A stretch of 32,000 nucleotides of DNA from Dongia sp. (GCF_041906375.1 NZ_JAYRJJ010000009.1:12706-44705), one strand, 5' to 3'; positions 18,311 to 32,000 are shown, counted from the first letter of the stretch. Notes: a model not told the origin generated them from the letters alone. Translations and numbers: made by a program.

Positions 18311-19279
18311 TTAGACGAACCACGATTTGGGGGCGTGCTTGCGAGGGCCGCTGGGGGGCCTCTTGATCTTCTTAGGAGGCAAGAACTCCCGGAACACGTC
18401 ATTAATGATCTGCCGCCAGCCGTCGTCGGGCTGCATCCCGATCAGAGTTTGAACAGGGTTCAGCCGCATGATGGAATCCTTGGCCTCCCCAGCATTCTTC
18501 TCCATGAGCAACTCCAGATACTGGGTGAACTTCGTCGGCCAGTCATCCAGCAGCGCGACGCCACGGGCAATCAGGTTTGACTGGGAAACCGTTGTCTTAC
18601 TTTCCCCAGGGCGCATAGCTTTGCCCTCGACGGCAGCAACGACACGGCCCAGGCTTAGCAGAAGCTCTAACTGATCGCCCATTGATAGGTCGGACAGGAC
18701 CGACCCTGGCGGGTGAGTTCCGCCAGTAGCAATCACATGAATCACCTTCATTGCATCTTGGGTCCGCTGATCCACGCTGCGGCCCTGCATCAAGGTGAAC
18801 GGCATCTGACAACGAGGACAGGCCTCGATTCCAGATAATGACCACAGGAATTCATGGTCCGGACAGGAGGGGCAGCTATTGATGAGAGTCCGCCGATGAA
18901 CGTGGCAGGCACTCAGCGGTCCCAAATACCAATTATGCCTGTGGAAAGGACTGTCCACTAAGCATTCTGGGCAGATCCACATTTTACTAGTCCGGACCCA
19001 ATCCCGAAGGATCACCTGGCCGCGAAAGTGCGCCAAGCGAGGTGTATCGGCACCCAGCAACCCGTTTTGGAGAACCTCCCATTGATCACCCAGTGCGTCG
19101 GCAAGTTGGTCCAAGCTCCAGGCAAAAGGTAGTCTCCATATCCGGTCGGCAGCGCGAAAATCAGGGATCAGATTTCCGACGTTTTCAGAACCAAGGATTT
19201 TCGCGGTGCGCTTGAGATAACCGAGGATGCTTTCGCCTTCATATGCCTGAGGGCGGATCGGATATTGTTTGACTGTCAT
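18311..19279 (-). CDS. TniQ-domain protein (solitary, with no TnsA/B/C partners in the window)
   Basis: The N-terminus 'YPIRPQAYEGESILGYLKRTA' fits the P-x-P-x-x-GES-hh-S/G-hh-R TniQ signature. It is followed by zinc-ribbon-like 'CPECL..H(x3)W..C.VHRRTLINSCPSCP...CPRC'. I trimmed the start to the only ATG (19277-19279). The track ORF begins at a TTG at 19411. Confidence 0.7.
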   Translation of the reverse strand: MTVKQYPIRPQAYEGESILGYLKRTAKILGSENVGNLIPDFRAADRIWRLPFAWSLDQLADALGDQWEVLQNGLLGADTPRLAHFRGQVILRDWVRTSKMWICPECLVDSPFHRHNWYLGPLSACHVHRRTLINSCPSCPDHEFLWSLSGIEACPRCQMPFTLMQGRSVDQRTQDAMKVIHVIATGGTHPPGSVLSDLSMGDQLELLLSLGRVVAAVEGKAMRPGESKTTVSQSNLIARGVALLDDWPTKFTQYLELLMEKNAGEAKDSIMRLNPVQTLIGMQPDDGWRQIINDVFREFLPPKKIKRPPSGPRKHAPKSWFV

Positions 19280-19394
19280 TGTTGGTTTGCTTGGGATCGA
19301 AGTTGCTGTGCATGCCACGCATGGAATTTGCCAAGCAGTTCTCAATTTAGGGTTACGATTTCCTTCAATTTTACATGAATTCGATCGACGCGTG

Positions 19395-20225
19395 TCAGAC
19401 CACGCTGACAACGACAGCGGTTAGATTATCATGGCCGCCCCGCTCAATGGCGAGTGACGCCAACCGATCTACTGCTTGGACGCCGTAATCTATCAGAGCC
19501 TCCCAAATCTCATCATCCTCAATAAGATCGCTAATTCCATCACTACAAATCAGATAACTCTCACCCAGCCAAAGTGATTTCCCACCCACATGTGGCGTGA
19601 TCTCTAGCTGAGGATTTGAGCCGCCTAGAACTTGAACTAGCGTGGAACTCTGCTTCTTTAGGCCTAGATAACCACCAACGGTATCGTCCCGAGATAGCTG
19701 ATAGAGCCCAAGCGAGCTAAACGAATACACTCGGGAGTCACCGACGTTAAAGAAATACATCGTCGCACCATGAATCCATAAGCCCGCTATTGTCGTGCCC
19801 ATGCCCCGCGTCTGGTCGGTCATCAAATCGAAGATTTGTCGGTCGACCTCGACGAGTGCTTGAGCAATGGCCTCCTTATTGTCGGCCCTCAAAAGCCGTC
19901 TGCTAAGGAACTCGATGGCGCCATGACTAGCGACCTCTCCGCCCGCCGGGTTGCTCATTCCGTCTGCGACCAGAACGACTCTGACTTCGTCCGTGGAAGC
20001 AGTTACTTCATGAGCGTTTCGCATGGAGTCGGAGGATGCCCAATCAACGACGTGAACACGATCCTGATTGATTGAATGAATCAGGCCCGGATGAGTGATC
20101 GCCCGGATCAGGAGGTTGAGTGAAGCGGGTGGCGATGACGGCCTATTTTCCTTCATTTGGGCTGACTTCAGATATTCGGGCATTGACGAAGGAAGCCGTG
20201 CCATCGATTTGGATGACAAACTCAA
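19395..20225 (-). CDS. PP2C-family (PPM) Ser/Thr protein phosphatase
   Basis: All PPM blocks are present: 'NQDR', 'VADGMS..GGEVAS', 'GMGTT', 'NVGDSRVY', 'CSDGISD' and 'GGHDNLTAVVV'. The start is uncertain. 20225 is a TTG, and in-frame ATGs lie at 20204, 20183 and 20156. Every option overlaps the stop of the upstream TIR gene (20143-20145). Confidence 0.85.
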   Translation of the reverse strand: MSLSSKSMARLPSSMPEYLKSAQMKENRPSSPPASLNLLIRAITHPGLIHSINQDRVHVVDWASSDSMRNAHEVTASTDEVRVVLVADGMSNPAGGEVASHGAIEFLSRRLLRADNKEAIAQALVEVDRQIFDLMTDQTRGMGTTIAGLWIHGATMYFFNVGDSRVYSFSSLGLYQLSRDDTVGGYLGLKKQSSTLVQVLGGSNPQLEITPHVGGKSLWLGESYLICSDGISDLIEDDEIWEALIDYGVQAVDRLASLAIERGGHDNLTAVVVSVV

Positions 20226-21027
20226 ATGTCATCTCATCCTTGTCAGGCTTGATAAGACCGCGAGTGTTGTCGACGATCGCGAGGATCTTGGTGGCTGCAT
20301 AGAAGCCATTGGTGTTTCTGAGTATGAGAATTTGACCAAGCTGCGGCCGACGATGTGCCGAGGAGAAGTCGAAAGTGGCGGCGTCGCCAATGTCGCTTAT
20401 TTCGTGGGCCCCAACAGCGACAGCGATGCCATGTATGCTGGGCTTGTCGTTGTGAGCTTGTATACTCGTGTCACTGGATTTACTCCAATGAGTCTCGAAG
20501 AGATATGGGTCACGTCCCAGGATGTAGACGCCGTTATACGACGAGTAATCGAAAGTGATCGTCCCGCTGCTTGATGTCACATGAGGCGGGGGAACGTCTG
20601 ATGCCTTGGTAGCGAAGGGGCTTATTCCCAGCTTCTGAACTATCAGTGTCGCCAAAGCATAGGGCGTCAGCTTATTCGCATCGAGATATTGGATTGTCGA
20701 GGGCATTCCCGGCACTGGCGTGTCATCAAAGCGGACAGGCAGAACGTATTCTGACTTCTCCATCAGAGCTCGGCTTAGAGCAGAACGACGTTCGTGGCTG
20801 CACCAGGGTTTGTCCACATACTCCTTGGAGATGAACATCACCACATACGATGTCTCAGCGGAGAAAAGCTGATGGAAGAACTCGACGCCGTCTTTGCCCC
20901 ATAGCGTTACTTGGCTGTCGCCGTCATAGAAGACCGGAACGCCAAAGGATTGAAGGGATCGAACGACCTGCTCGACGTAGAGTCGTTGTTCTCCAGCGAA
21001 CGAAACGGCTGCCTGATACTTAAACAT
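20143..21027 (-). CDS. TIR-domain protein with an unassigned ~150-aa C-terminal domain
   Basis: The N-terminal ~140 aa read 'AAVSFAGEQRLYVEQVVRSLQSFGVPVFYD..VVMFISKEYVDKPWCSHERRSAL', which is TIR_2-like with a WCxxE glutamate. The C-terminal half ('TITFDYSSYNGVYILGRDP...GQILILRNTNGFYAATKILAIVD') looks beta-rich and I do not recognise it. Confidence 0.8.
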   Translation of the reverse strand: MFKYQAAVSFAGEQRLYVEQVVRSLQSFGVPVFYDGDSQVTLWGKDGVEFFHQLFSAETSYVVMFISKEYVDKPWCSHERRSALSRALMEKSEYVLPVRFDDTPVPGMPSTIQYLDANKLTPYALATLIVQKLGISPFATKASDVPPPHVTSSSGTITFDYSSYNGVYILGRDPYLFETHWSKSSDTSIQAHNDKPSIHGIAVAVGAHEISDIGDAATFDFSSAHRRPQLGQILILRNTNGFYAATKILAIVDNTRGLIKPDKDEMTFEFVIQIDGTASFVNARISEVSPNEGK

Positions 21028-21214: not shown

Positions 21215-21242
21215 TTGATTAATCCTTAACAGATCTTATAAT
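21215..21242 (+). promoter_or_regulatory. Sigma70-like promoter candidate for thsA
   Basis: TTGATT (21215-21220), a 16-bp spacer, then TATAAT (21237-21242), about 43 nt upstream of the thsA GTG and within the AT-rich divergent region. Confidence 0.35.
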
Positions 21243-24456: not shown

Positions 24457-24561
24457 GCGAATGATGGTTACGGAGATGCGCTTTCGCCACTGCGCATACC
24501 GGAAACATGTGTCATTGAGTCCTTTTGGGATCGTTCCACTGCTAGCACTGGGGGGAGTGAG

Positions 24562-26094
24562 ATGGCTAGACTACTTGGCCCTGTTCTGCGCCTTCGCGGC
24601 CACGACCATCGAAACAACCTCTGGCGCATAAGCGCGCTGGTATGTGTTGAGGCGGGCGATCCCAAGCCTACACTATCCTATTCGCTCGGCGTTGGTGACA
24701 GGAACATTCCCTGCGGCCAGCTCTGGGCAATCGACGGCGCAGAGTCTTATCGATTTGATCTCGATGTGCCCCTCACTGATCAGCCCCAGGTTCTTCGCTA
24801 TCGAGTTAGCACGGGGCCGGAAGAGTGGACAGTTCATGTCCCTGGCCAAAACATTCAGCCGCTGTTCGCATTTGGGTCGTGCAACGGTTTTTCGAGCCTG
24901 AAGCTCAAGAAGTCAATCGATGACTCGGATGCGCTATGGAAACATATGGCGCTCCGCCACGAAACTATCGGCTATAACGCTCTTCTATTGGGTGGCGATC
25001 AAGTTTACTCCGATGCCATGTGGGAGCTCATCACCGAACTTGAAGACTGGAATGATCGGCTCTGGAGCGATCCTCTGAAAGGTGTCGTTCCCGAGGGCTT
25101 GCCTGAAAAACTGCTGAACCACTTCTTTATGGAAATGTACTGCAGGCGTTGGAGTCAGCGCCCGGTTCGCGAAGTTCTAGCTCGAATACCAACCATCATG
25201 ATGTGGGATGATCACGACATCATGGATGGCTGGGGTTCCTACAAAGAAGAGTGGGCTCAGAGCCCTGTCTATCGCCTCATCTTCTCTACTGCGAGCAAGT
25301 GTTTTGAACTCTTTCAACTCCAGTCGACGATGCACGATCCGGTATTTATCCCGGATCGTGCGGCAGGCTACAGCCAGCTCTACTATTTCTCGGGCGTGTC
25401 GCTTCTCATTCCTGACCTACGTGCTGAACGGCGGCTTGATCAGGTAATCAGTCCGACAACGTGGAAGGCTATCTATAGTAAGCTCGAAAGCCTATCGATC
25501 GATCCCGATCGCGCACTAGTTCCCTGCCGACATCTATTGGTCATGTCTAGCATTCCCGTCATGCACGCGCGGTTCGGTCAAATCGAGTCAATCCTTGGCT
25601 GGACGCCGGGACAGCAAGAGCTTGAGGACGACCTACACGATCATTGGAGCAGTCGCCCCCATCGAGGCGAGCGCCTTCGCCTGATTCATCGGCTCCTGGA
25701 GTACTCCCGCAAAGAAAATGTGAGAGTGACCATTCTGTCCGGAGACGTTCATGTCGCGGCACATGCGACAATCTATTCTAGTCGGGAGGGCGAGCCTAGC
25801 ACCAAGCACACACTGGTTCAGTTAACTTCATCGGGTATCGTTCATCCGGCGCCCCCAGCGATCATGAGGTTTGCCCTCAACACTCTGTTTGATGATGACG
25901 AAGAGATTGATCAGGGCATCATTGGGCGCATGGAAAAGATGCCGGGCGACGAAAGGCGCTATGTTGCATCGAGGAATTGGCTATCTCTCGAACGAGATGA
26001 TCCTCAACGATCCTTGGGGCGGCTTTGGGCGAACTGGTTCGCCGAAGAGGATGTGGCGCATCCGTTTACGAGGGTGATTCATCCGATCGGATAG
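24562..26094 (+). CDS. PhoD-like / calcineurin-like metallophosphoesterase
   Basis: 510 aa with metallophosphatase blocks 'FAFGSCNG', 'LLLGGDQVYSD', 'IMMWDDHDIMDGWGSY' and 'ILSGDVHVAAH'. The ATG follows GGGGGAGTGAG. Confidence 0.75.
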   Translation: MARLLGPVLRLRGHDHRNNLWRISALVCVEAGDPKPTLSYSLGVGDRNIPCGQLWAIDGAESYRFDLDVPLTDQPQVLRYRVSTGPEEWTVHVPGQNIQPLFAFGSCNGFSSLKLKKSIDDSDALWKHMALRHETIGYNALLLGGDQVYSDAMWELITELEDWNDRLWSDPLKGVVPEGLPEKLLNHFFMEMYCRRWSQRPVREVLARIPTIMMWDDHDIMDGWGSYKEEWAQSPVYRLIFSTASKCFELFQLQSTMHDPVFIPDRAAGYSQLYYFSGVSLLIPDLRAERRLDQVISPTTWKAIYSKLESLSIDPDRALVPCRHLLVMSSIPVMHARFGQIESILGWTPGQQELEDDLHDHWSSRPHRGERLRLIHRLLEYSRKENVRVTILSGDVHVAAHATIYSSREGEPSTKHTLVQLTSSGIVHPAPPAIMRFALNTLFDDDEEIDQGIIGRMEKMPGDERRYVASRNWLSLERDDPQRSLGRLWANWFAEEDVAHPFTRVIHPIG

Positions 26095-26199
26095 CGTCGA
26101 GGCTACACATCATGCCAGGGCACTTTGGCACGATCTGCCATGGCGCATTGCTGAAACGTCTGCGGCGACACCTGTAACCGAAGATCAGTAGGTACATCC

Positions 26200-27111
26200 A
26201 TGAATCGTTCGGCGGAAACATCATTGATCGACGTTTTGGGGAGGCGGCATGAAAAGCTGACCTTGCTTTTGGGGAATGGCGTAAACCGCTACGGTAGTTC
26301 TGGTCGGCACAATTCCTGGGCAGATTTGCTGCTCGATGTTGCAAATAGGCATATTCCAGGTGTTGGCGACAGGCTTCCTTCCGGCGTTACGGCAACCGAA
26401 GTATTCGATCTATCCTGCTTAGCTGCGAAGTCTAAGGATTCGGAAGGCCTTTTGCAGAAGGAATTTTGTACCTCAATGGCTTCGTGGAGGGCATATCCGC
26501 ATCATGAGCGGATCGTGGAGTGGGCCCGGGAACGAGATCATCCAATTCTCACGACCAACTTCGACCAGGTCCTTTCAGAGTCCTGCAATGCGAATGTTTA
26601 TCATCATGGGAACTCGAAATTCACTTACTACTACCCGTGGGCAACCTACTTTGGGCTCGGAGAGATCCAACGCCCTTCATCGGCATTTGGTATATGGCAC
26701 CTACACGGAATGATGCGATATCATCGAAGCATACGTCTGGGGTTGACTCATTATATGGGGGCTGTTCACCAAGCCCGAAGGTGGATTCATCGTGGGGGCG
26801 GTAGACTTTTCTCATCGGCGAGAGCCATCGATACCTGGAGTGGAAGTGGGACTTGGTTGGACGCTTTTTTCAACAATGACCTGCTTGTGATAGGTCTTTC
26901 GTTGGATGAAGTAGAAGTCTTTATTCGATGGTTGCTCCTGGAGAGATCGCGCTTATTCAAGAACTTCCCATCATTGCGTCGCAGAGGTTGGTTTGTTTGC
27001 ACCAAAGACGGCGTCTCCCCAGGAAGAGAGTTGTTCCTGCGGGGCGTGGGGCTGACGCCAATCAGGGTGAAGGACTACCACGAGATTTATCAATCAACTG
27101 GCTGGCGCTAG
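26200..27111 (+). CDS. Stand-alone SIR2-like protein (SIR2_2 / ThsA-N-terminal type, no SLOG)
   Basis: 303 aa. 'LLLGNGVN' sits in the position of GAGxS. 'ILTTNFDQVLSE' contains Asn120 (codon 26557-26559). 'IWHLHGMM' contains the catalytic-position His. 'DLLVIGLSLDEVEV' parallels the FLGFSFTD block of ThsA. Confidence 0.75.
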   Translation: MNRSAETSLIDVLGRRHEKLTLLLGNGVNRYGSSGRHNSWADLLLDVANRHIPGVGDRLPSGVTATEVFDLSCLAAKSKDSEGLLQKEFCTSMASWRAYPHHERIVEWARERDHPILTTNFDQVLSESCNANVYHHGNSKFTYYYPWATYFGLGEIQRPSSAFGIWHLHGMMRYHRSIRLGLTHYMGAVHQARRWIHRGGGRLFSSARAIDTWSGSGTWLDAFFNNDLLVIGLSLDEVEVFIRWLLLERSRLFKNFPSLRRRGWFVCTKDGVSPGRELFLRGVGLTPIRVKDYHEIYQSTGWR

Positions 27112-27130
27112 GCGTAGCGCGTACGCCTAG
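27108..27130 (+). terminator. Hairpin overlapping the SIR2 stop codon, a possible end of the long plus-strand transcription unit
   Basis: CTAGGCGTA (27108-27116) pairs with TACGCCTAG (27122-27130) around a 5-nt GCGCG loop, followed by TTTG. The T-tract is weak. Confidence 0.4.
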
Positions 27131-27246
27131 TTTGAAAGCGACAGCTCCTGGTTTGTCCTACAGCTCTTACACGTTGGGCGAGACGCGGACGCCATCTTCA
27201 GCCTATTGCCATCGGACTGGGGTCGGGCTTATCGGCTCGTCGGCTA

Positions 27247-27708
27247 TCAAGCTGCCCAGTCTCCAGCTTGGCGGGGCGCATTAAGGATTTCGGTGGCCGA
27301 AGCCTGCGCATCTATCAAGAAGGCAAAGGCAAGCTGGCCGTGGGCCTTAGAAATTGTTTCTAGAGCCCTGTCCTCCGCGGTCAGAAATAGCTCCGCGCCA
27401 TTTGTGATGATATATCGAAATGGCAGGGGCCCTAGTGGTGTGTTTTTGAGGTTTTGCCTGAGCTGACGAAGTGCGCTTTTTAGGCGAGAAATCTCAATAC
27501 CGGATTCCAGTAAGCCCTTAATGATCTTCAGGCTAACTACGTCCCCAAATGTGAAGCGGCGGCGGATACCACGCTTTCCTGGAGGCGACCCGGACGGCGT
27601 CACAATTCCCATCCTGGCAAGATAATCGACCATGGTTAATGACAGTCCGCTCAGTTCAGCGGCCCGTTTCGCTGTAACGCATTGAAGAACGATATTTTGC
27701 TTGACCAT
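27247..27708 (-). CDS. MerR-family transcriptional regulator
   Basis: The N-terminal HTH reads 'VTAKRAAELSGLSLTMVDYLARMGIVTP......RRRFTFGDVVSLKIIKGLLESGIEISRLKSAL'. I do not recognise the C-terminal ~70 aa. Confidence 0.75.
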   Translation of the reverse strand: MVKQNIVLQCVTAKRAAELSGLSLTMVDYLARMGIVTPSGSPPGKRGIRRRFTFGDVVSLKIIKGLLESGIEISRLKSALRQLRQNLKNTPLGPLPFRYIITNGAELFLTAEDRALETISKAHGQLAFAFLIDAQASATEILNAPRQAGDWAA

Positions 27709-27822
27709 TTCATAACTATGCTCAGAATTATGATGAATACAACAGAAACTTGCGACTCGGGATCGTGGCTCAGCTATAAGAAGACACGGTAATGTTGAGC
27801 AGGTTTAGTTGGTTGATATGTC

Positions 27823-27840
27823 GCAGATGTCGCTATCTGC
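27823..27840. promoter_or_regulatory. Palindrome cluster in the MerR / unknown-gene divergent region (candidate operator)
   Basis: GCAGAT-n6-ATCTGC (27823-27840) overlaps GCTAT-n4-ATAGC. It is flanked by two ACGGTAAT direct repeats (27785-27792 and 27851-27858). Confidence 0.35.
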
Positions 27841-27916
27841 ATAGCGCAAGACGGTAATCGGTGCTTTGATCGCCCATCGGTGGGATGACGCCCGGTTGAA
27901 TTTGAAGGAGGTGACC

Positions 27917-28384
27917 ATGGCTCTCGACTACGACAGATTGGTCGCCAAAAGCTATCAAGACGTTTTCGGTGACGAGTCCGTGAAGGTGATCGATGCAAGC
28001 GTTCTGGGCTGCATGATTGCATCAGCGTGGATGGCAGATGTATCGGATCACAAATTTCCATCCGAGCGTCTTGCTGCCCTCGTTACGTCGGTCAAAGATG
28101 TTCCAGAGTCCGTGCGGAACTCACTCCACATTCAAGAACGCCTTGAGGGCGACTACCTTGAGGAGACGACTGAGATGGTTGTTGCTGCTCAGTCCGCAGG
28201 CCTAGTCGGCCGTCTGAATCCCACAAGCGTATCCGCGATCTTTAAGGTCAACCCGGTAAAGGCATCTCAGCTCTTGAAGAGTTACGAGCTGGATTATCCC
28301 GAAGAAGTGGCCTGGGTGAAGCGGGCAATTGCTGGATTCCGCGACAAGGAGTCTAGCTCCAGTTCAGTGGCGGAAGTAGCTTAA
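27917..28384 (+). CDS. Hypothetical acidic protein, no family recognised
   Basis: 155-aa ORF starting at the ATG at 27917 ('MALDYDRLVAKSY'), directly after GAAGGAGGTG. It ends 11 nt before the HD gene. Coding status is supported by the strong RBS and the tight coupling, not by homology. Confidence 0.6.
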   Translation: MALDYDRLVAKSYQDVFGDESVKVIDASVLGCMIASAWMADVSDHKFPSERLAALVTSVKDVPESVRNSLHIQERLEGDYLEETTEMVVAAQSAGLVGRLNPTSVSAIFKVNPVKASQLLKSYELDYPEEVAWVKRAIAGFRDKESSSSSVAEVA

Positions 28385-28395
28385 GGTCACTGCAT

Positions 28396-30903
28396 TTGGG
28401 CAACCTTGACGCGCTTCAGGGCAAGCTCAAATCCGTATCAAAATTCATTGTTCCGTATATCTTCGAAGTTCTGGCGCCTCGCCTTATCGAGACGACTGAT
28501 CCTGACTATTTGGATGTCAGCGACTCCAAAGATCTGAATGATCCTATTTGGAAAATTGTTCGACTTCGCAAGCTTGAAGTTGCTCTTTTGAATTTGCCGC
28601 TCTTTCAGCGCCTTCGTCATGTTCGGCAGCTTGGCCTAGCTCATTTGGTTTATCCCACCGCTGTCCATAGCCGTTTGGACCATTCTATTGGCACCATGAT
28701 TGCGGCCCGCCGAATGTACGAAATGATCTTGGCGAACACCGACAAGATCGATCAGGCGAAGGCCAAGAAGTTCGGCGAAATAGCATCCTTTGCTGCGCTG
28801 CTCCATGACGCAGGGCATACGGCGTTCAGTCACTGTGGTGAGACGGTTCTCAGTACAATGCTTCCTGGGGAGTTCTCCAGGATCGAAAAGGAGCTACAGA
28901 CATTCTACTCGAAGGGCGATGGCGCCAAGACATTCAAAGAGAGTAAGCGGCCACCTGCCGCCGAGTTGATTTCGGTCCTATTCGTCCTTTCTCCATCAAT
29001 GCGGAGGTTCCTGACTAACCACGAGATACCTGTAGCTATTGAGCGTTTCATACTCACTGCGGCTGGATTGATAATTGGCCGCGGATACCAACTTGAGGAA
29101 GGCGACGACGAGTTCAATTTCATATCGTCAATTGTCTCCGGCGATCTAGACGCAGACAAAATAGACTATGTGGCGAGAGACGCATATTTCTCTGGCGTGC
29201 CTATATCGGCTGATGTTGATAGACTGATTTCGCAGCTTGTTGCAGCTCCCGTGACAAAAGACACGACCGTCAACGGAAAGCAGGCAGACCAGCATCTCAA
29301 GCTAAACAACAAAACTCGATATGATCTGGGAATTCGTAGGGCGGGCATCTCCGCATTTGAGATGTTCGTGATGACTAGATCTTATCTGTTCGAGCGAATC
29401 TACAGCCACCAGAAGATACGTGCTGCCGAACGGGCACTTGAGCGCACAGTCAGGCTATTTGTCGGTCACCTCTTGCCGGACATCGCAAAGGATGATCGTG
29501 ATAAACCGGAATCAATAAAGCTAGTAACCGAGGGGCTTCAGAAGGTTTTTGATCTATTGTTCGTCGCCACGGGAGACGATGGAGTCCTTCATGAAATGCT
29601 GCGGCACGGCGACTACGAGGAGTGGGCAAATCGAATCCTTCTACGACGCCTTCCAATGCGGGGCCTTGCCATCAATCAGCGGGTTGCCAAGGAGTTCGTG
29701 GCCGATGGAAATGGCACGCCAATGTCCATTCTTCTGCCATTCAAGTATGTCTCCAGAATAGCGACCGACAGCGCTCAGCTACGTGAGCTGGAGACGGAGA
29801 TCAAGGCATCCTCCGGTCTTGATGAATCTGATTACGTTATTATTGACTGGCCGAGCTTCAACCCGGTTAGCGAGAATCCTAAACTTTACGTTTGGGACCA
29901 TAAAGAGCCCAAGAATCTAAGTACGCTGAGCAGATATTTTAATGTTCAGCAGCTCTCAAATGCATATCGCGACGTTAAGCAAACTGCTTGGGTGTTCTGC
30001 TCGCCGTCCAATCGAGTAAAAGTTGGTGTAACTACTGCACTCATCCTCGAAGAGAAATTTGATTTGCTCCTTGGCATGGAGGCCTTTCATCGCGCCAAGC
30101 TCCTCGATCATGAGGTTACAGATTACCTCAATCACCTTTCACCACCGATTGGAAATGAGCGTGGGCGTATCGCATTAGACAATCTCAGACAGAATATTCT
30201 GGATTGCAGATTAATCCCTAGCGTCAAGCAGCTTGAGGAGGCCTTCGCAGATCTGGAAGAACCCGAAATTCCAAGGGTTGCAAATAAGATTGAAAGTGCT
30301 TTTCTCACTCACCCATTTTTGCGTGGATATTCAGATCATCTCGCTGAAGCCATGGCTGTCTTGGCCTTCCTGATCCGCCATGCACAGACGACAATTGGAA
30401 ATTTTCCTCAGCCTAGTCGAAAGGCGCGCGTTAAAGGTGACGAAGATCTTGCGCCTGACGCTGCAAGTGAGGATGAGAAGAAGAAGAAGCGAGAGGCCAC
30501 TTTTCAACAGAGCGTAAGAGAGTTCGTTCAGGCAGATCGAGCAACGAACGCTCGATTTGAGATCATTGACGGCGGACATGTTGGCGGCGGCGCGTTTGAT
30601 TTGGTTTTCCAATCGAAGACGCCGCCGATGGTCTCGGTCGTCGTGGAGCTGAAGAGCGAAGATGCGAAGTACGAAAAGATTTATGATAGATCGGCGGGTC
30701 AGCCGTCTGTCTATGCAACAGATCGATTTGGGCGTGCTTCGATTCTCTATGTGCAGTACAAACAGATGGAAAGCGTCTCTGTCTCGGATACAATCGAGCT
30801 TCGGAGGGCTTCCGGCAGCAACCAGGTAACATTTTGCCTCGCACAAAATGCCTTTGGCGGTAAGCCGAGCGAACGAGGCGGCGGGACGAGCAAAATAGCA
30901 TAA
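28396..30903 (+). CDS. SAMHD1/dGTPase-like HD-domain phosphohydrolase with a long C-terminal extension ending in a putative PD-(D/E)xK module
   Basis: HD blocks: 'PLFQRLRHVRQLGLAHLVYPTAVHSRLDHSIG', 'AALLHDAGHTAFSH' and 'GDLDADKIDYVARDAYFSGV'. The 835-aa length is much greater than I remember for stand-alone dGTPases. The C-terminus has 'GAFDLVF(x12)VVVELK'. The start is the TTG at 28396. There is no ATG upstream of the conserved N-terminal region. Confidence 0.8.
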   Translation: MGNLDALQGKLKSVSKFIVPYIFEVLAPRLIETTDPDYLDVSDSKDLNDPIWKIVRLRKLEVALLNLPLFQRLRHVRQLGLAHLVYPTAVHSRLDHSIGTMIAARRMYEMILANTDKIDQAKAKKFGEIASFAALLHDAGHTAFSHCGETVLSTMLPGEFSRIEKELQTFYSKGDGAKTFKESKRPPAAELISVLFVLSPSMRRFLTNHEIPVAIERFILTAAGLIIGRGYQLEEGDDEFNFISSIVSGDLDADKIDYVARDAYFSGVPISADVDRLISQLVAAPVTKDTTVNGKQADQHLKLNNKTRYDLGIRRAGISAFEMFVMTRSYLFERIYSHQKIRAAERALERTVRLFVGHLLPDIAKDDRDKPESIKLVTEGLQKVFDLLFVATGDDGVLHEMLRHGDYEEWANRILLRRLPMRGLAINQRVAKEFVADGNGTPMSILLPFKYVSRIATDSAQLRELETEIKASSGLDESDYVIIDWPSFNPVSENPKLYVWDHKEPKNLSTLSRYFNVQQLSNAYRDVKQTAWVFCSPSNRVKVGVTTALILEEKFDLLLGMEAFHRAKLLDHEVTDYLNHLSPPIGNERGRIALDNLRQNILDCRLIPSVKQLEEAFADLEEPEIPRVANKIESAFLTHPFLRGYSDHLAEAMAVLAFLIRHAQTTIGNFPQPSRKARVKGDEDLAPDAASEDEKKKKREATFQQSVREFVQADRATNARFEIIDGGHVGGGAFDLVFQSKTPPMVSVVVELKSEDAKYEKIYDRSAGQPSVYATDRFGRASILYVQYKQMESVSVSDTIELRRASGSNQVTFCLAQNAFGGKPSERGGGTSKIA

Positions 30904-30974: not shown

Positions 30975-32000
30975 CTAGTGCCGGGTCATTCCATGCTCTC
31001 GCGAAGCGACTACAGCTTCGACAAGCCGCTCAAGCGTCCGCAGCGACGATCCCTGCCATAAGCGTGACATCGCCTCCATTTCCTCGACCGTGAACGGGGA
31101 TGCCCATCTGGAGCTCAATCCCCGCCGCTCAAAAACCCGCTTGAGCATTTGGTAGCTGATGGCGACCATGTCTGACGGCCTGGGTTCCGGAAATCGGATC
31201 GCTCGACACCGATCAAGCAGCACGCCGGGAATGCCCTTGAGAGTGTTCGCTGTGGCGATCCACACGACGTTCGATAAATCCACTGGGGATTGAATGTAAG
31301 GGTCGACCCATCGCCGCGCTGACTGCGCTTCGAAGAACCCCAGCAAGACATCGAACATCGAGCCATTCTGTTTTGACGTGGACGCTTTTTCCATCTCATC
31401 GAGAAGAATTCCTGGAGACGCCGTCGCATGGCGGCGGATCATAGCCACTGGAAGAGAAGGCTCTCCTGAATGCCATCGCCGAGCCGTGCCGCCGATCGTA
31501 GAGTCCGCCACCCCGCCACATGGGTACGTCTCATTCGGCACTTCCAAGAGGTCAAGAAAACGCTCGGCGTAAGAAGTCTTGCCGCAGCCGGGCGGTCCAA
31601 ACAGAACAGTCGGCCGCATGGTGACATGCTGCTTCCCATATAGACCGCCTAACATCGCCTTGGTCACATCAGCCGCGTGAGGGAATTCGGTCAGCAATGT
31701 GTTGCCAATCAGATCAAGATTGGGAATCGCGATAAGAGGGAGTGCCTTGGCCTCGATTTCCTTGAATTCTCGGCGGAGCGTCGATCCCGCGCTGATGTCG
31801 GTGTTTCCAACTCGCTGCAGCACTACCACTGTCAGATCTTTCGGTGCGGACGGCCCATTTTGTGGTGTAGCCTGAACCTCAATGTGCGCCTCGATCGTCG
31901 CGTCTTTATCTGACAGCCTCTCCGATACCTCAGGATTGGCCTTTTTCAAAAACTTTGCGCCACACTCACACGCAGCTTGCCGCGCATCATTTCGCCGTAA
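30975..32000 (-). CDS. Lon-like AAA+ ATPase module without a protease domain, probably 5'-truncated by the window edge
   Basis: 'VLFGPPGCGKTS' Walker A, 'ILLDEMEKA' Walker B and 'VWIATANTLKGIPGVLLDRCRAIRFPEP' parallel the Lon AAA+ blocks (GPPGVGKTS / LLDEIDK / FIATAN..IP.PLLDRMEVI). The track start at 31949 is a TTG, and I translated the same frame as open through 32000. Confidence 0.75.
   Translation of the reverse strand, partial: LRRNDARQAACECGAKFLKKANPEVSERLSDKDATIEAHIEVQATPQNGPSAPKDLTVVVLQRVGNTDISAGSTLRREFKEIEAKALPLIAIPNLDLIGNTLLTEFPHAADVTKAMLGGLYGKQHVTMRPTVLFGPPGCGKTSYAERFLDLLEVPNETYPCGGVADSTIGGTARRWHSGEPSLPVAMIRRHATASPGILLDEMEKASTSKQNGSMFDVLLGFFEAQSARRWVDPYIQSPVDLSNVVWIATANTLKGIPGVLLDRCRAIRFPEPRPSDMVAISYQMLKRVFERRGLSSRWASPFTVEEMEAMSRLWQGSSLRTLERLVEAVVASREHGMTRH

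Follow-up and report, generated by a model that had tools for sequence, protein, structure and literature searches.

Why should the gene for a PhoD-like metallophosphoesterase lie between a Thoeris defence operon and the gene for a short, stand-alone SIR2 protein? The question is raised by a 32,000-nucleotide stretch of DNA from Dongia sp. (GCF_041906375.1, NZ_JAYRJJ010000009.1:12706-44705), referred to throughout as the window, in which the two genes follow the Thoeris genes on the plus strand. The original prediction had offered two answers: that the pair forms a new two-gene system depleting nicotinamide adenine dinucleotide (NAD), or that it is an accessory of Thoeris. The answer we reach is that the PhoD-like gene comes from an otherwise housekeeping family and was captured into a defence island in one narrow lineage, where it and its SIR2 neighbour may be a local accessory to NAD-depleting immunity; they are not a new two-gene defence system of wide occurrence. 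As to function, we favour, with a probability of roughly 0.4, a recruited housekeeping hydrolase that would act on NAD-derived nucleotides—ADP-ribose (ADPR), the Thoeris signal glycocyclic ADPR (gcADPR), or NAD+—beside SIR2 NADases.

The argument starts from where the two genes meet. Co-occurrence was surveyed with tblastn and with profile hidden Markov models for both families run across 177 loci, and both families are present in only two of these, L001 and L168, which with the window make three independent loci (L002 is an identical fragment of L001, and L169 a 94%-identical copy of window positions 26070-27349). The PhoD-like proteins of L001 (P0001, 88% amino acid identity) and L168 (P0002, 86%) are the only close database relatives of the window protein; a hunt for more members of this subclade found no match to the PhoD-like query in the viral collection and, for P0122 of the SIR2-family alignment, no relative above 49% identity. 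Within the PhoD-linked subclade, at 86-88% amino acid identity, a short SIR2 is found in all three loci and the Thoeris effector ThsA in two. L001 encodes ThsA and three ThsB proteins, 78-94% identical in amino acids to those of the window, then, past a 46-nt gap, the PhoD-like protein, followed by two minus-strand genes (one Mrr-like, the other for 330 aa of no family), a short SIR2 at 54-56% identity and a DUF1883-TIR gene; the PhoD-like and SIR2 genes are 2.4 kb apart. L168 is a 2.8-kb contig, Ga0077121_10092628 of JGI 3300005511, from a project separate from that of L001, which ends 0.8 kb upstream of its PhoD-like gene; there the SIR2 gene begins about 45 nt downstream, its product 73% identical over the 146 residues after which the contig cuts it off. 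Some 36 nt ahead of the L168 PhoD-like gene, positions 2-784 encode the last part (at least 260 aa) of a multi-pass membrane protein, which is not a TIR protein, shows three or more hydrophobic segments and has no Pfam, PADLOC or plasmid match.

Orthologues of the two proteins thus co-occur in both other loci of the subclade and nowhere else among the 177. With the pairing confined to one narrow lineage, the assumption of a conserved pair on which the original prediction was built is unsupported, and its first reading, a new two-gene system, is not borne out: the refuting condition it had named, that the pair should not be neighbours in other genomes, mostly holds. The PhoD-family survey took the best 80 genome loci (37-46% identity) of at least 574 places on one-genome-per-species contigs, in a family with 1532 matches among the scored candidates, and contained neither a Thoeris gene nor a short SIR2. 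The short-SIR2 survey took 85 loci, 80 of them metagenomic (40-56% identity) and five viral, and contained neither a PhoD-like gene nor Thoeris. A general PhoD-like and SIR2 system was accordingly rejected.

Where the pairing does occur, it has the marks of inheritance. A neighbour-joining tree unites the three PhoD-linked SIR2s in one clade, whose sister is a Rhizobiaceae clade, so the association arose once and was then inherited. Synonymous divergence (dS) between the window and L168 is 1.32 for PhoD and 1.42 for SIR2, an agreement that identifies the two as co-inherited genes. Their flanks have changed, both upstream (ThsB-3 in the window, the membrane protein in L168) and downstream, and the PhoD-SIR2 neighbourhood has been kept. 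Retention of this kind is uncommon in the family: among 592 pairs of SIR2 loci at 50-60% SIR2 identity, 10 (1.7%) have a common neighbour within 3 kb, and two of those ten are PhoD pairs. Neighbour-sharing rises to 20% at 60-80% identity and to 88% at 80-95%. A blastn block common to the window and L001 (21178-26089) was considered as a transfer unit of Thoeris plus PhoD and set aside, since its edges track gene constraint and dS inside it is uneven (0.6-0.9 for ThsA, ThsB-1 and ThsB-2; about 1.5 for ThsB-3 and PhoD). Further along, a gene for a Lon/IetA-like AAA ATPase holds the same relative position in the window (30975-31949, minus strand) and in L001 (14860-16419), with 66% nucleotide identity over 450 nt, which suggests an old island backbone common to both.

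The enzyme itself is what it had been taken for, namely a 510-residue metallophosphoesterase encoded on the plus strand past the last ThsB gene, with intact GDQVY, WDDHD and SGDVH blocks; the open reading frame (ORF), Pfam and the family alignment all agree on this. The protein matches PF19050 (PhoD_2) at 127.6 bits (E 5.5e-37; cut-off 22 bits) and PF09423 (PhoD) at 31.3 bits (cut-off 27 bits). Its motifs are SCNGF at residue 106, which holds the PhoD-type Cys, GDQVY at 145, WDDHD at 215, SGDVH at 393 and VHP at 427, and the PhoD metal-ligand motifs are invariant across a 25-sequence family alignment. In the AlphaFold model (predicted local distance difference test, pLDDT, 87; predicted template modelling score, pTM, 0.91) an N-terminal beta-sandwich is joined to a metallophosphatase domain. 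Foldseek relates this model to PDB structures of purple acid phosphatases (E 1e-13, template modelling (TM) score 0.5-0.59) and to giant-virus PhoD-like proteins (E 2e-21, TM up to 0.74), and a search with the family profile found no PDB sequence homologue at E<=1. The PADLOC and NCBIfam defence models give no match for the protein.

Bacillus subtilis PhoD is secreted through the twin-arginine translocation (Tat) pathway and scavenges phosphate, a role that the original prediction had named as a competing identity for the window enzyme. A Tat motif of the RRxFL type and a hydrophobic N-terminus are absent from the window protein and from 120 relatives alike, and residues 3-15 are modelled as a beta-strand within the folded domain; the protein is therefore cytoplasmic. 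Pst and Pho genes are likewise absent, both from the neighbours of the 80 PhoD relatives and from the window. A secreted, phosphate-scavenging PhoD is ruled out by the lack of a signal peptide or Tat motif. The gene is under strong purifying selection (ratio of nonsynonymous to synonymous divergence, dN/dS, 0.05-0.07, with dS 1.3-1.5 or saturated). Compared with the wider family, the island copies differ at eight conserved positions, mildly, and most of these differences are common to a housekeeping sister clade; being so few and so mild, they imply that the island copy does whatever the PhoD family natively does. Elsewhere in the family, P. putida pTTS12 (L172) and about 100 Pseudomonas megaplasmids carry a PhoD_2-family copy at 39% identity directly after a phospholipase D (PLD)-like gene, and these PhoD_2 and PLD-like genes lie near DNA methyltransferases and an integrase.

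The second protein had been described as a 303-residue member of the SIR2_2 type. Its size and SIR2 fold stand, but its Pfam SIR2_2 match, at 23.6 bits, is just under the gathering score of 24.5, so the SIR2 identity rests mainly on the fold. The L001 homologue scores 27.2 bits, and most members of the family have no precomputed SIR2_2 match. The AlphaFold model (pLDDT 85) is a lone SIR2-like domain with no second domain, and Pfam agrees, in keeping with the claim that the protein has neither a SLOG nor any other sensor domain. Foldseek matches this model with probability 1.0 to KomC, DSR2, human FAM118B, SIR2-HerA and SPARSA, the best solved match being KomC (E 1.4e-7 to 3e-5, TM 0.62-0.68 on the target). 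At the level of sequence, profile searches against PDB sequences gave the SIR2 family chance-level matches and no link to KomC or to the other proteins of similar fold, and PADLOC and NCBIfam models did not match the 303-residue protein.

GNGVN begins at residue 25 of this protein, TTNFD at 118 and HLHG at 167. In the alignment of 195 family members (P0121-P0315), G25, N26, G27, N29, T118, T119, N120 and F121 are invariant, which gives the patterns GNGxN and TTNF[D/E] and upholds the catalytic-type Asn proposed in TTNFD. The catalytic His proposed in HLHG fares less well: the motif is present, but, where ThsA and KomC read x-H-G, 187 of the 195 members have H-x-N-G and only four H-x-H-G, the second His being usually Asn, so that the family-conserved residue is H167 and H169 is an exception of the window protein and a few others. 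BLASTP against ThsA places H169 opposite the His of its 'MHG' only in a non-significant segment (E 3.3), and hhalign of the family against ThsA was uninformative. Among the KomC structures is a PDB entry entitled 'dITP-KomBC(H146N) Complex with NAD Fragments', and, judging from this title, the H146N variant was used to capture NAD fragments. We infer that KomC H146 corresponds to H169, which would make most of the SIR2 family mechanistically unusual; its members may rely on a His at a shifted position for catalysis, or have another mode of action.

The short-SIR2 family is sizeable, with 270 clusters at 50% identity at E<=1e-30 and 786 at E<=1e-10, nearly all of about 300 aa, and it behaves as a solitary module. 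Neighbour clustering in the 80 metagenome loci, to which it was limited, and Pfam and PADLOC searches of 130 neighbours revealed no conserved partner of any kind. The neighbours are rich in defence and mobile genes (LmuB, MADS, type I restriction-modification, reverse transcriptase, Septu, Shedu, AbiL, TIR, integrases), and genes with no evident connection occur among them too. Ten tightly spaced genes directly upstream of SIR2s are mutually unrelated: they encode hydantoinase B, a methyl-accepting chemotaxis protein (MCP), DCD-domain, HARE-HTH, DUF932 and Abi_C proteins, one protein with a weak, sub-threshold DUF5803 match and three without a Pfam match. In a complete Rhizobium genome the short SIR2 follows an integrase and a DUF1016 nuclease; in Quatrionicoccus it follows a HEPN gene, and in Undibacterium it stands alone amid housekeeping genes.

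Some local regularities in the family deserve mention in their own right. On A. tumefaciens pAtCFBP7129b (L170) and in L088 and L089, a protein of about 1400 aa is encoded about 40 nt after the short SIR2, with an AbiEii toxin and a RelE/ParE pair nearby; the DUF3883 label of this protein comes from the plasmid record, and the giant ORFs of L088 and L089 are 94% identical to each other. In two unrelated replicons, an A. tumefaciens chromosome (L003) and Sphingomonas pNXO2 (L171), a DUF3800 gene on the strand opposite to the short SIR2 lies two or three genes upstream of it; L003 also has a CBASS operon and a gene for a 413-aa TIR_2 protein close by. Seven loci (L107, L111, L144, L125, L158, L159, L181), all of one SIR2 sub-lineage, share a trio on one strand with short gaps: a protein of about 472-478 aa with no Pfam match, the SIR2, and a protein resembling 3-keto-disaccharide hydrolase (about 280-300 aa).

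What might the phosphoesterase do in such company? Here the discussion moves from what is observed (how the genes are built, their domains and folds, the lack of a secretion signal, their distribution and the selection on them) to co-transcription, substrates and any cooperation among the proteins, which are inferred. An intact, unspecialised active site and a place beside SIR2 NADases in three of three loci are what lead us to favour a recruited accessory hydrolase. In outline, Thoeris would work as usual, its TIR proteins making gcADPR and ThsA depleting NAD+, and the short SIR2 would serve as an independent NAD+-consuming effector. The PhoD-like enzyme, its native catalytic activity unchanged, would hydrolyse the pyrophosphate or a phosphodiester bond of NAD-derived nucleotides, and removal of ADPR or NAD+ would block both phage reconstitution of NAD+ and the build-up of ADPR. 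Such chemistry has precedents. The calcineurin-like metallophosphatase MisA of the Metis system converts NAD+ to nicotinamide mononucleotide (NMN) and AMP in defence, and its discoverers expect NAD+ cleavage to be widespread and to defeat the NARP1 pathway of phages (bioRxiv 10.1101/2025.11.05.686725). Phosphoesterases encoded beside phage sirtuins have been proposed, on the basis of comparative genomics, to process derivatives of ADPR (PMC9503650). Phages can rebuild NAD+ from ADPR and nicotinamide, and a contest between bacteria and phages over which form this ADPR fragment takes is documented (10.64898/2026.01.28.702374).

Two forms of this accessory role can be told apart. The greater part of the probability given above falls to removal of the ADPR product or of NAD+ itself, by chemistry of the MisA type, and the lesser part to clearing of the gcADPR signal. 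We lean to the former, since the gene directly upstream of the L168 pair is not a Thoeris gene, and since an enzyme that degraded the signal constitutively would blunt Thoeris. The second reading of the original prediction, a Thoeris accessory or off-switch, has one independent relative behind it: Thoeris lies upstream in L001, another gene takes that position in L168, and the 80 other PhoD loci are without Thoeris. A bolder version, in which a PhoD_2 processor would serve both ThsA and a KomC-like SIR2 and would either defeat NARP1 by destroying ADPR or NAD+ or provide the first host 'ring-nuclease-like' off-switch for gcADPR, we consider unlikely. Literature searches returned no host-encoded enzyme of such a kind that degrades the Thoeris signal.

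Much weighs against recruitment, and the same evidence often speaks for a plainer account. On that account the gene is a passenger: an ordinary cytoplasmic phosphoesterase carried as cargo on a mobile island, its position owed to common ancestry of the three islands, with Thoeris and the short SIR2 as two unrelated, self-sufficient defence units. We regard this as almost as likely as recruitment, though at clearly less than even odds. In the 80 PhoD-family loci the immediate neighbours are housekeeping genes—PolA, M20 peptidase, glucose-6-phosphate dehydrogenase, dCTP deaminase, transporters, MCPs—and no neighbour is conserved past genus level; beyond the island subclade, the closest relatives (56-58% identity) have an M20 peptidase gene on one side and an AI-2E transporter gene on the other. 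Among 112 immediate neighbours of PhoD genes 10 PADLOC families were matched, mostly by cross-reaction, against 483 among 130 SIR2 neighbours. Thoeris and the short-SIR2 family occur nearly everywhere without a PhoD-like enzyme. The island PhoD copies show no subclade-specific substitutions at conserved sites, in the active site or otherwise, and so no mark of a new specificity, and no substrate evidence was found for any PF19050 member. The two-gene insertion between PhoD-like and SIR2 in L001 means that the pair is under no operon constraint there. Other SIR2 sub-lineages keep synteny over similar spans with genes unrelated to defence, such as the 3-keto-disaccharide hydrolase trio, hydantoinase B and MCPs. 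The clade of PhoD-linked SIR2s is also fast-evolving (dN 0.39, against 0.07 for the PhoD-like gene), so percent identity overstates the time elapsed and the 1.7% baseline is weakened. Finally, the three loci belong to one lineage and may have only an ancestral island backbone in common, a possibility made concrete by the wider, diverged backbone that the window and L001 share.

Set against the passenger account are features of the neighbourhood itself. In all three contexts the gene is wedged among defence genes, on the same strand and with gaps of 22-105 nt, and the PhoD-SIR2 neighbourhood persists where upstream and downstream content has changed, at a SIR2 divergence at which retained neighbours are rare in the family. 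The GC content of the gene, about 0.53, is that of the island and not that of the 0.62 core, which implies long residence in the island. Taken as a whole, the case for functional coupling among these genes is thin, and it is the place beside SIR2 genes in all three loci, together with an untouched active site, that keeps recruitment as the reading we favour.

A third account, in effect the first reading of the original prediction, has an analogue in Kongming, in which KomC is active only in complex with KomB, a nucleotide-binding partner with an enzyme fold (HAM1 pyrophosphatase) encoded next door (PMC13454610; bioRxiv 10.1101/2024.12.20.629578). By analogy, the phosphoesterase-fold protein would sense a nucleotide and switch on the sensor-less SIR2 NADase. 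The lack of a sensor domain in the short SIR2, with KomC chains as its nearest solved structures, accords with this, as does the adjacency of the two genes in the window and L168; the PhoD-linked SIR2s moreover form a distinct, long-branched clade with H-x-H-G in place of the family's H-x-N-G. Yet two members without a PhoD-like neighbour (P0225 and P0244) carry H-x-H-G too, and the motif was rejected as a marker of PhoD linkage. The SIR2 family, being nearly always solitary or beside unrelated genes, has no need of a PhoD-like partner, the L001 insertion parts the two genes, and the PhoD-like protein has all its catalytic residues and, at conserved positions, agrees with its housekeeping relatives throughout. 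A complex of this type is, in our estimate, improbable. Least credible of all is a stand-alone PhoD effector, mechanistically unrelated to its neighbours and depleting nucleotides or NAD+ or degrading nucleic acid, for although the gene lies within a defence island, metallophosphatase effectors such as MisA are known and the Pseudomonas megaplasmid genes keep comparable company, the protein has no sensor or regulatory domain past the family-wide beta-sandwich, matches no defence model, and belongs to a family so overwhelmingly housekeeping that a constitutively toxic activity is not to be expected.

The coordinates of the locus are given in Table 1. ThsA and the three ThsB proteins constitute a canonical type I Thoeris operon.

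Table 1. Features of the Thoeris, PhoD-like and SIR2 segment, in window positions.
Feature	Position	Strand	Basis or remark
Sigma-70-like promoter site, TTGATT-16-TATAAT, 10/12	21215..21242	+	Consensus scan; upstream of thsA
thsA, SIR2 + SLOG (STALD) Thoeris effector, 479 aa	21285..22724	+	SIR2_2 1e-27, STALD 5.6e-58, PADLOC ThsA 2.8e-179
thsB-1, TIR-like, 136 aa	22729..23139	+	ThsB_TIR 5.7e-20; PADLOC ThsB 2.8e-39
thsB-2, TIR-like, 199 aa	23206..23805	+	ThsB_TIR 6.4e-25; PADLOC ThsB 1.3e-55
thsB-3, TIR-like, 201 aa	23851..24456	+	PADLOC ThsB 2.9e-63
thsB-3/PhoD-like spacer, 105 nt	24457..24561	+	GGAG 6-9 nt ahead of ATG
PhoD_2-family metallophosphoesterase, 510 aa, ATG start	24562..26094	+	PF19050, motifs, predicted fold
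PhoD-like/SIR2 spacer, 105 nt	26095..26199	+	Not conserved in L168 (about 45 nt there) or L001
Short stand-alone SIR2-like protein, 303 aa, ATG start, single domain	26200..27111	+	KomC-like fold (Foldseek), motifs
Hairpin over SIR2 stop codon, CTAGGCGTA-GCGCG-TACGCCTAG	27108..27130	+	About 10-bp stem, 5-nt loop

The site ahead of thsA is the sole strong promoter-like site found by the consensus scan on the plus strand between 20900 and 27500. The same scan detected neither a promoter-like nor a terminator-like site in either spacer, and with the ORF coordinates it confirms what had been said of them, namely that each is 105 nt long and holds no convincing terminator; no shared regulatory element was found in the spacers. 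The hairpin reported at the SIR2 stop exists, but few T residues follow it, and against shuffles its energy is ordinary (z = -0.69). The terminator scan misses it because of that T-poor tail; a weak terminator is a possible role. L001 lacks about 61 nt of the spacer between thsB-3 and PhoD (24465-24525), which contain a short inverted repeat ATGCGC...GCGCAT and no T tract.

More broadly, the island boundary is marked near 18.1 kb by a fall in GC content, which is about 0.62-0.64 before it and about 0.52 after it; the window contains no tRNA, Rfam match or flanking repeat. To the left of the boundary are core genes (IlvD, parts of an ABC transporter, a PAS protein), and to the right, on the minus strand, TniQ-domain, PP2C and TIR genes, then Thoeris and the PhoD-like and SIR2 genes. 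Beyond SIR2 come a MerR gene, a giant HD-domain protein with weak dGTPase-like matches and an AAA ATPase. The segment makes up the tail of a defence island of low GC content, which the PhoD-like and SIR2 genes share, and this tail is three head-to-tail units: type I Thoeris, the PhoD_2 enzyme and the solitary SIR2.

Two neighbouring gene groups are of interest independently of the pair. On the minus strand between 18311 and 21027, genes for a TIR protein of 294 aa (20143-21027), a PP2C protein of 276 aa (19395-20225) and a TniQ-domain protein of 366 aa (18311-19411) run head to tail with overlaps of 83 nt and 17 nt, divergent from thsA; they could represent a unit of three genes on the edge of the island, or else a Tn7-like element's TniQ end. 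The 294-aa TIR protein has a weak PADLOC PDC-S66 match, and so, far more strongly (E 2.8e-69), does the DUF1883-TIR protein of L001 (13548-14345, minus strand), whose gene converges with the short SIR2. At 27247-30903, a minus-strand MerR-family gene is followed on the plus strand by a 172-aa ORF without a family and an 835-aa HD-domain protein with weak dGTPase-like and HD_assoc_2 matches, a candidate defence pair downstream of SIR2.

It is foreseeable that either outcome for the PhoD-like gene would be instructive. If the enzyme is recruited, it would add an extra step to immunity, product destruction or signal clearing, and would be an example of a defence island enlisting a housekeeping enzyme without altering it. 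If it is a passenger, it would serve as a caution that tight co-directional placement after a known system, in one lineage, is weak evidence of function. Whichever holds, the sizeable family of KomC-like solitary SIR2 proteins of about 300 aa, absent from PADLOC 2023, is a reasonable candidate for a single-gene defence family.

How, then, does the locus compare with what is already described? Literature searches turned up no described system that pairs PhoD with Thoeris or SIR2, just as had been supposed. Type I Thoeris is the closest reference, since the upstream four genes are textbook and the short SIR2 has the SIR2 fold of ThsA and its TTNxD Asn motif. Thoeris as defined, however, includes neither a phosphoesterase nor a second SIR2, the short SIR2 is without the gcADPR-binding SLOG (or Macro) module, and the L168 PhoD-SIR2 pair has another gene directly upstream. 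Kongming offers in KomC, of about 264 aa, a sensor-less SIR2 to which the 303-aa protein is structurally closest, and in KomB a next-door protein with a nucleotide-hydrolase fold that controls it. The window differs in that no HAM1 (KomB) or deaminase (KomA) gene is among the neighbours, in that the partner fold is of the PhoD/purple acid phosphatase type with its active site intact, and in that the pairing is unconserved in the SIR2 family. DSR2, SIR2-HerA, the SPARSA SIR2 and human FAM118B share the SIR2 fold, but they come with sensor or partner modules (a C-terminal sensor, HerA, or a prokaryotic Argonaute), of which the 303-aa family has none.

For the phosphoesterase, Metis provides the nearest chemistry: MisA is a binuclear metallophosphoesterase in an NAD-centred defence, and its action on the NAD pyrophosphate resembles what we propose. 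MisA, however, is a PF00149 protein with an N-terminal PUA-like sensor of N6-methyl-dAMP (m6dAMP) and a HAD partner, MisB, whereas the window protein belongs to PF19050/PF09423, has a beta-sandwich N-domain and mostly housekeeping relatives, and has no adjacent HAD gene. With B. subtilis PhoD and plant purple acid phosphatases it has in common an architecture of beta-sandwich and metallophosphatase domain, with ligand motifs of Cys, Asp, Tyr and His; it is set apart from the former by the lack of a Tat motif and of a hydrophobic N-terminus in 120 family members, and the family has no PDB sequence match even at E<=1. CRISPR type III ring nucleases and ADPRibase-Mn, which hydrolyses ADPR and cyclic ADPR in a Mn-dependent manner, are conceptual analogues of an off-switch, although the ring nuclease fold is unrelated to that of the PhoD-like protein and ADPRibase-Mn is a much smaller PF00149 protein. 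Seen against these systems, Thoeris is already known, the short SIR2 is a new member of its superfamily outside defined systems, and PhoD_2 enters without a described role in defence; together they amount at most to a new variant, specific to one lineage, of NAD-centred immunity, and not to a system of a new category.

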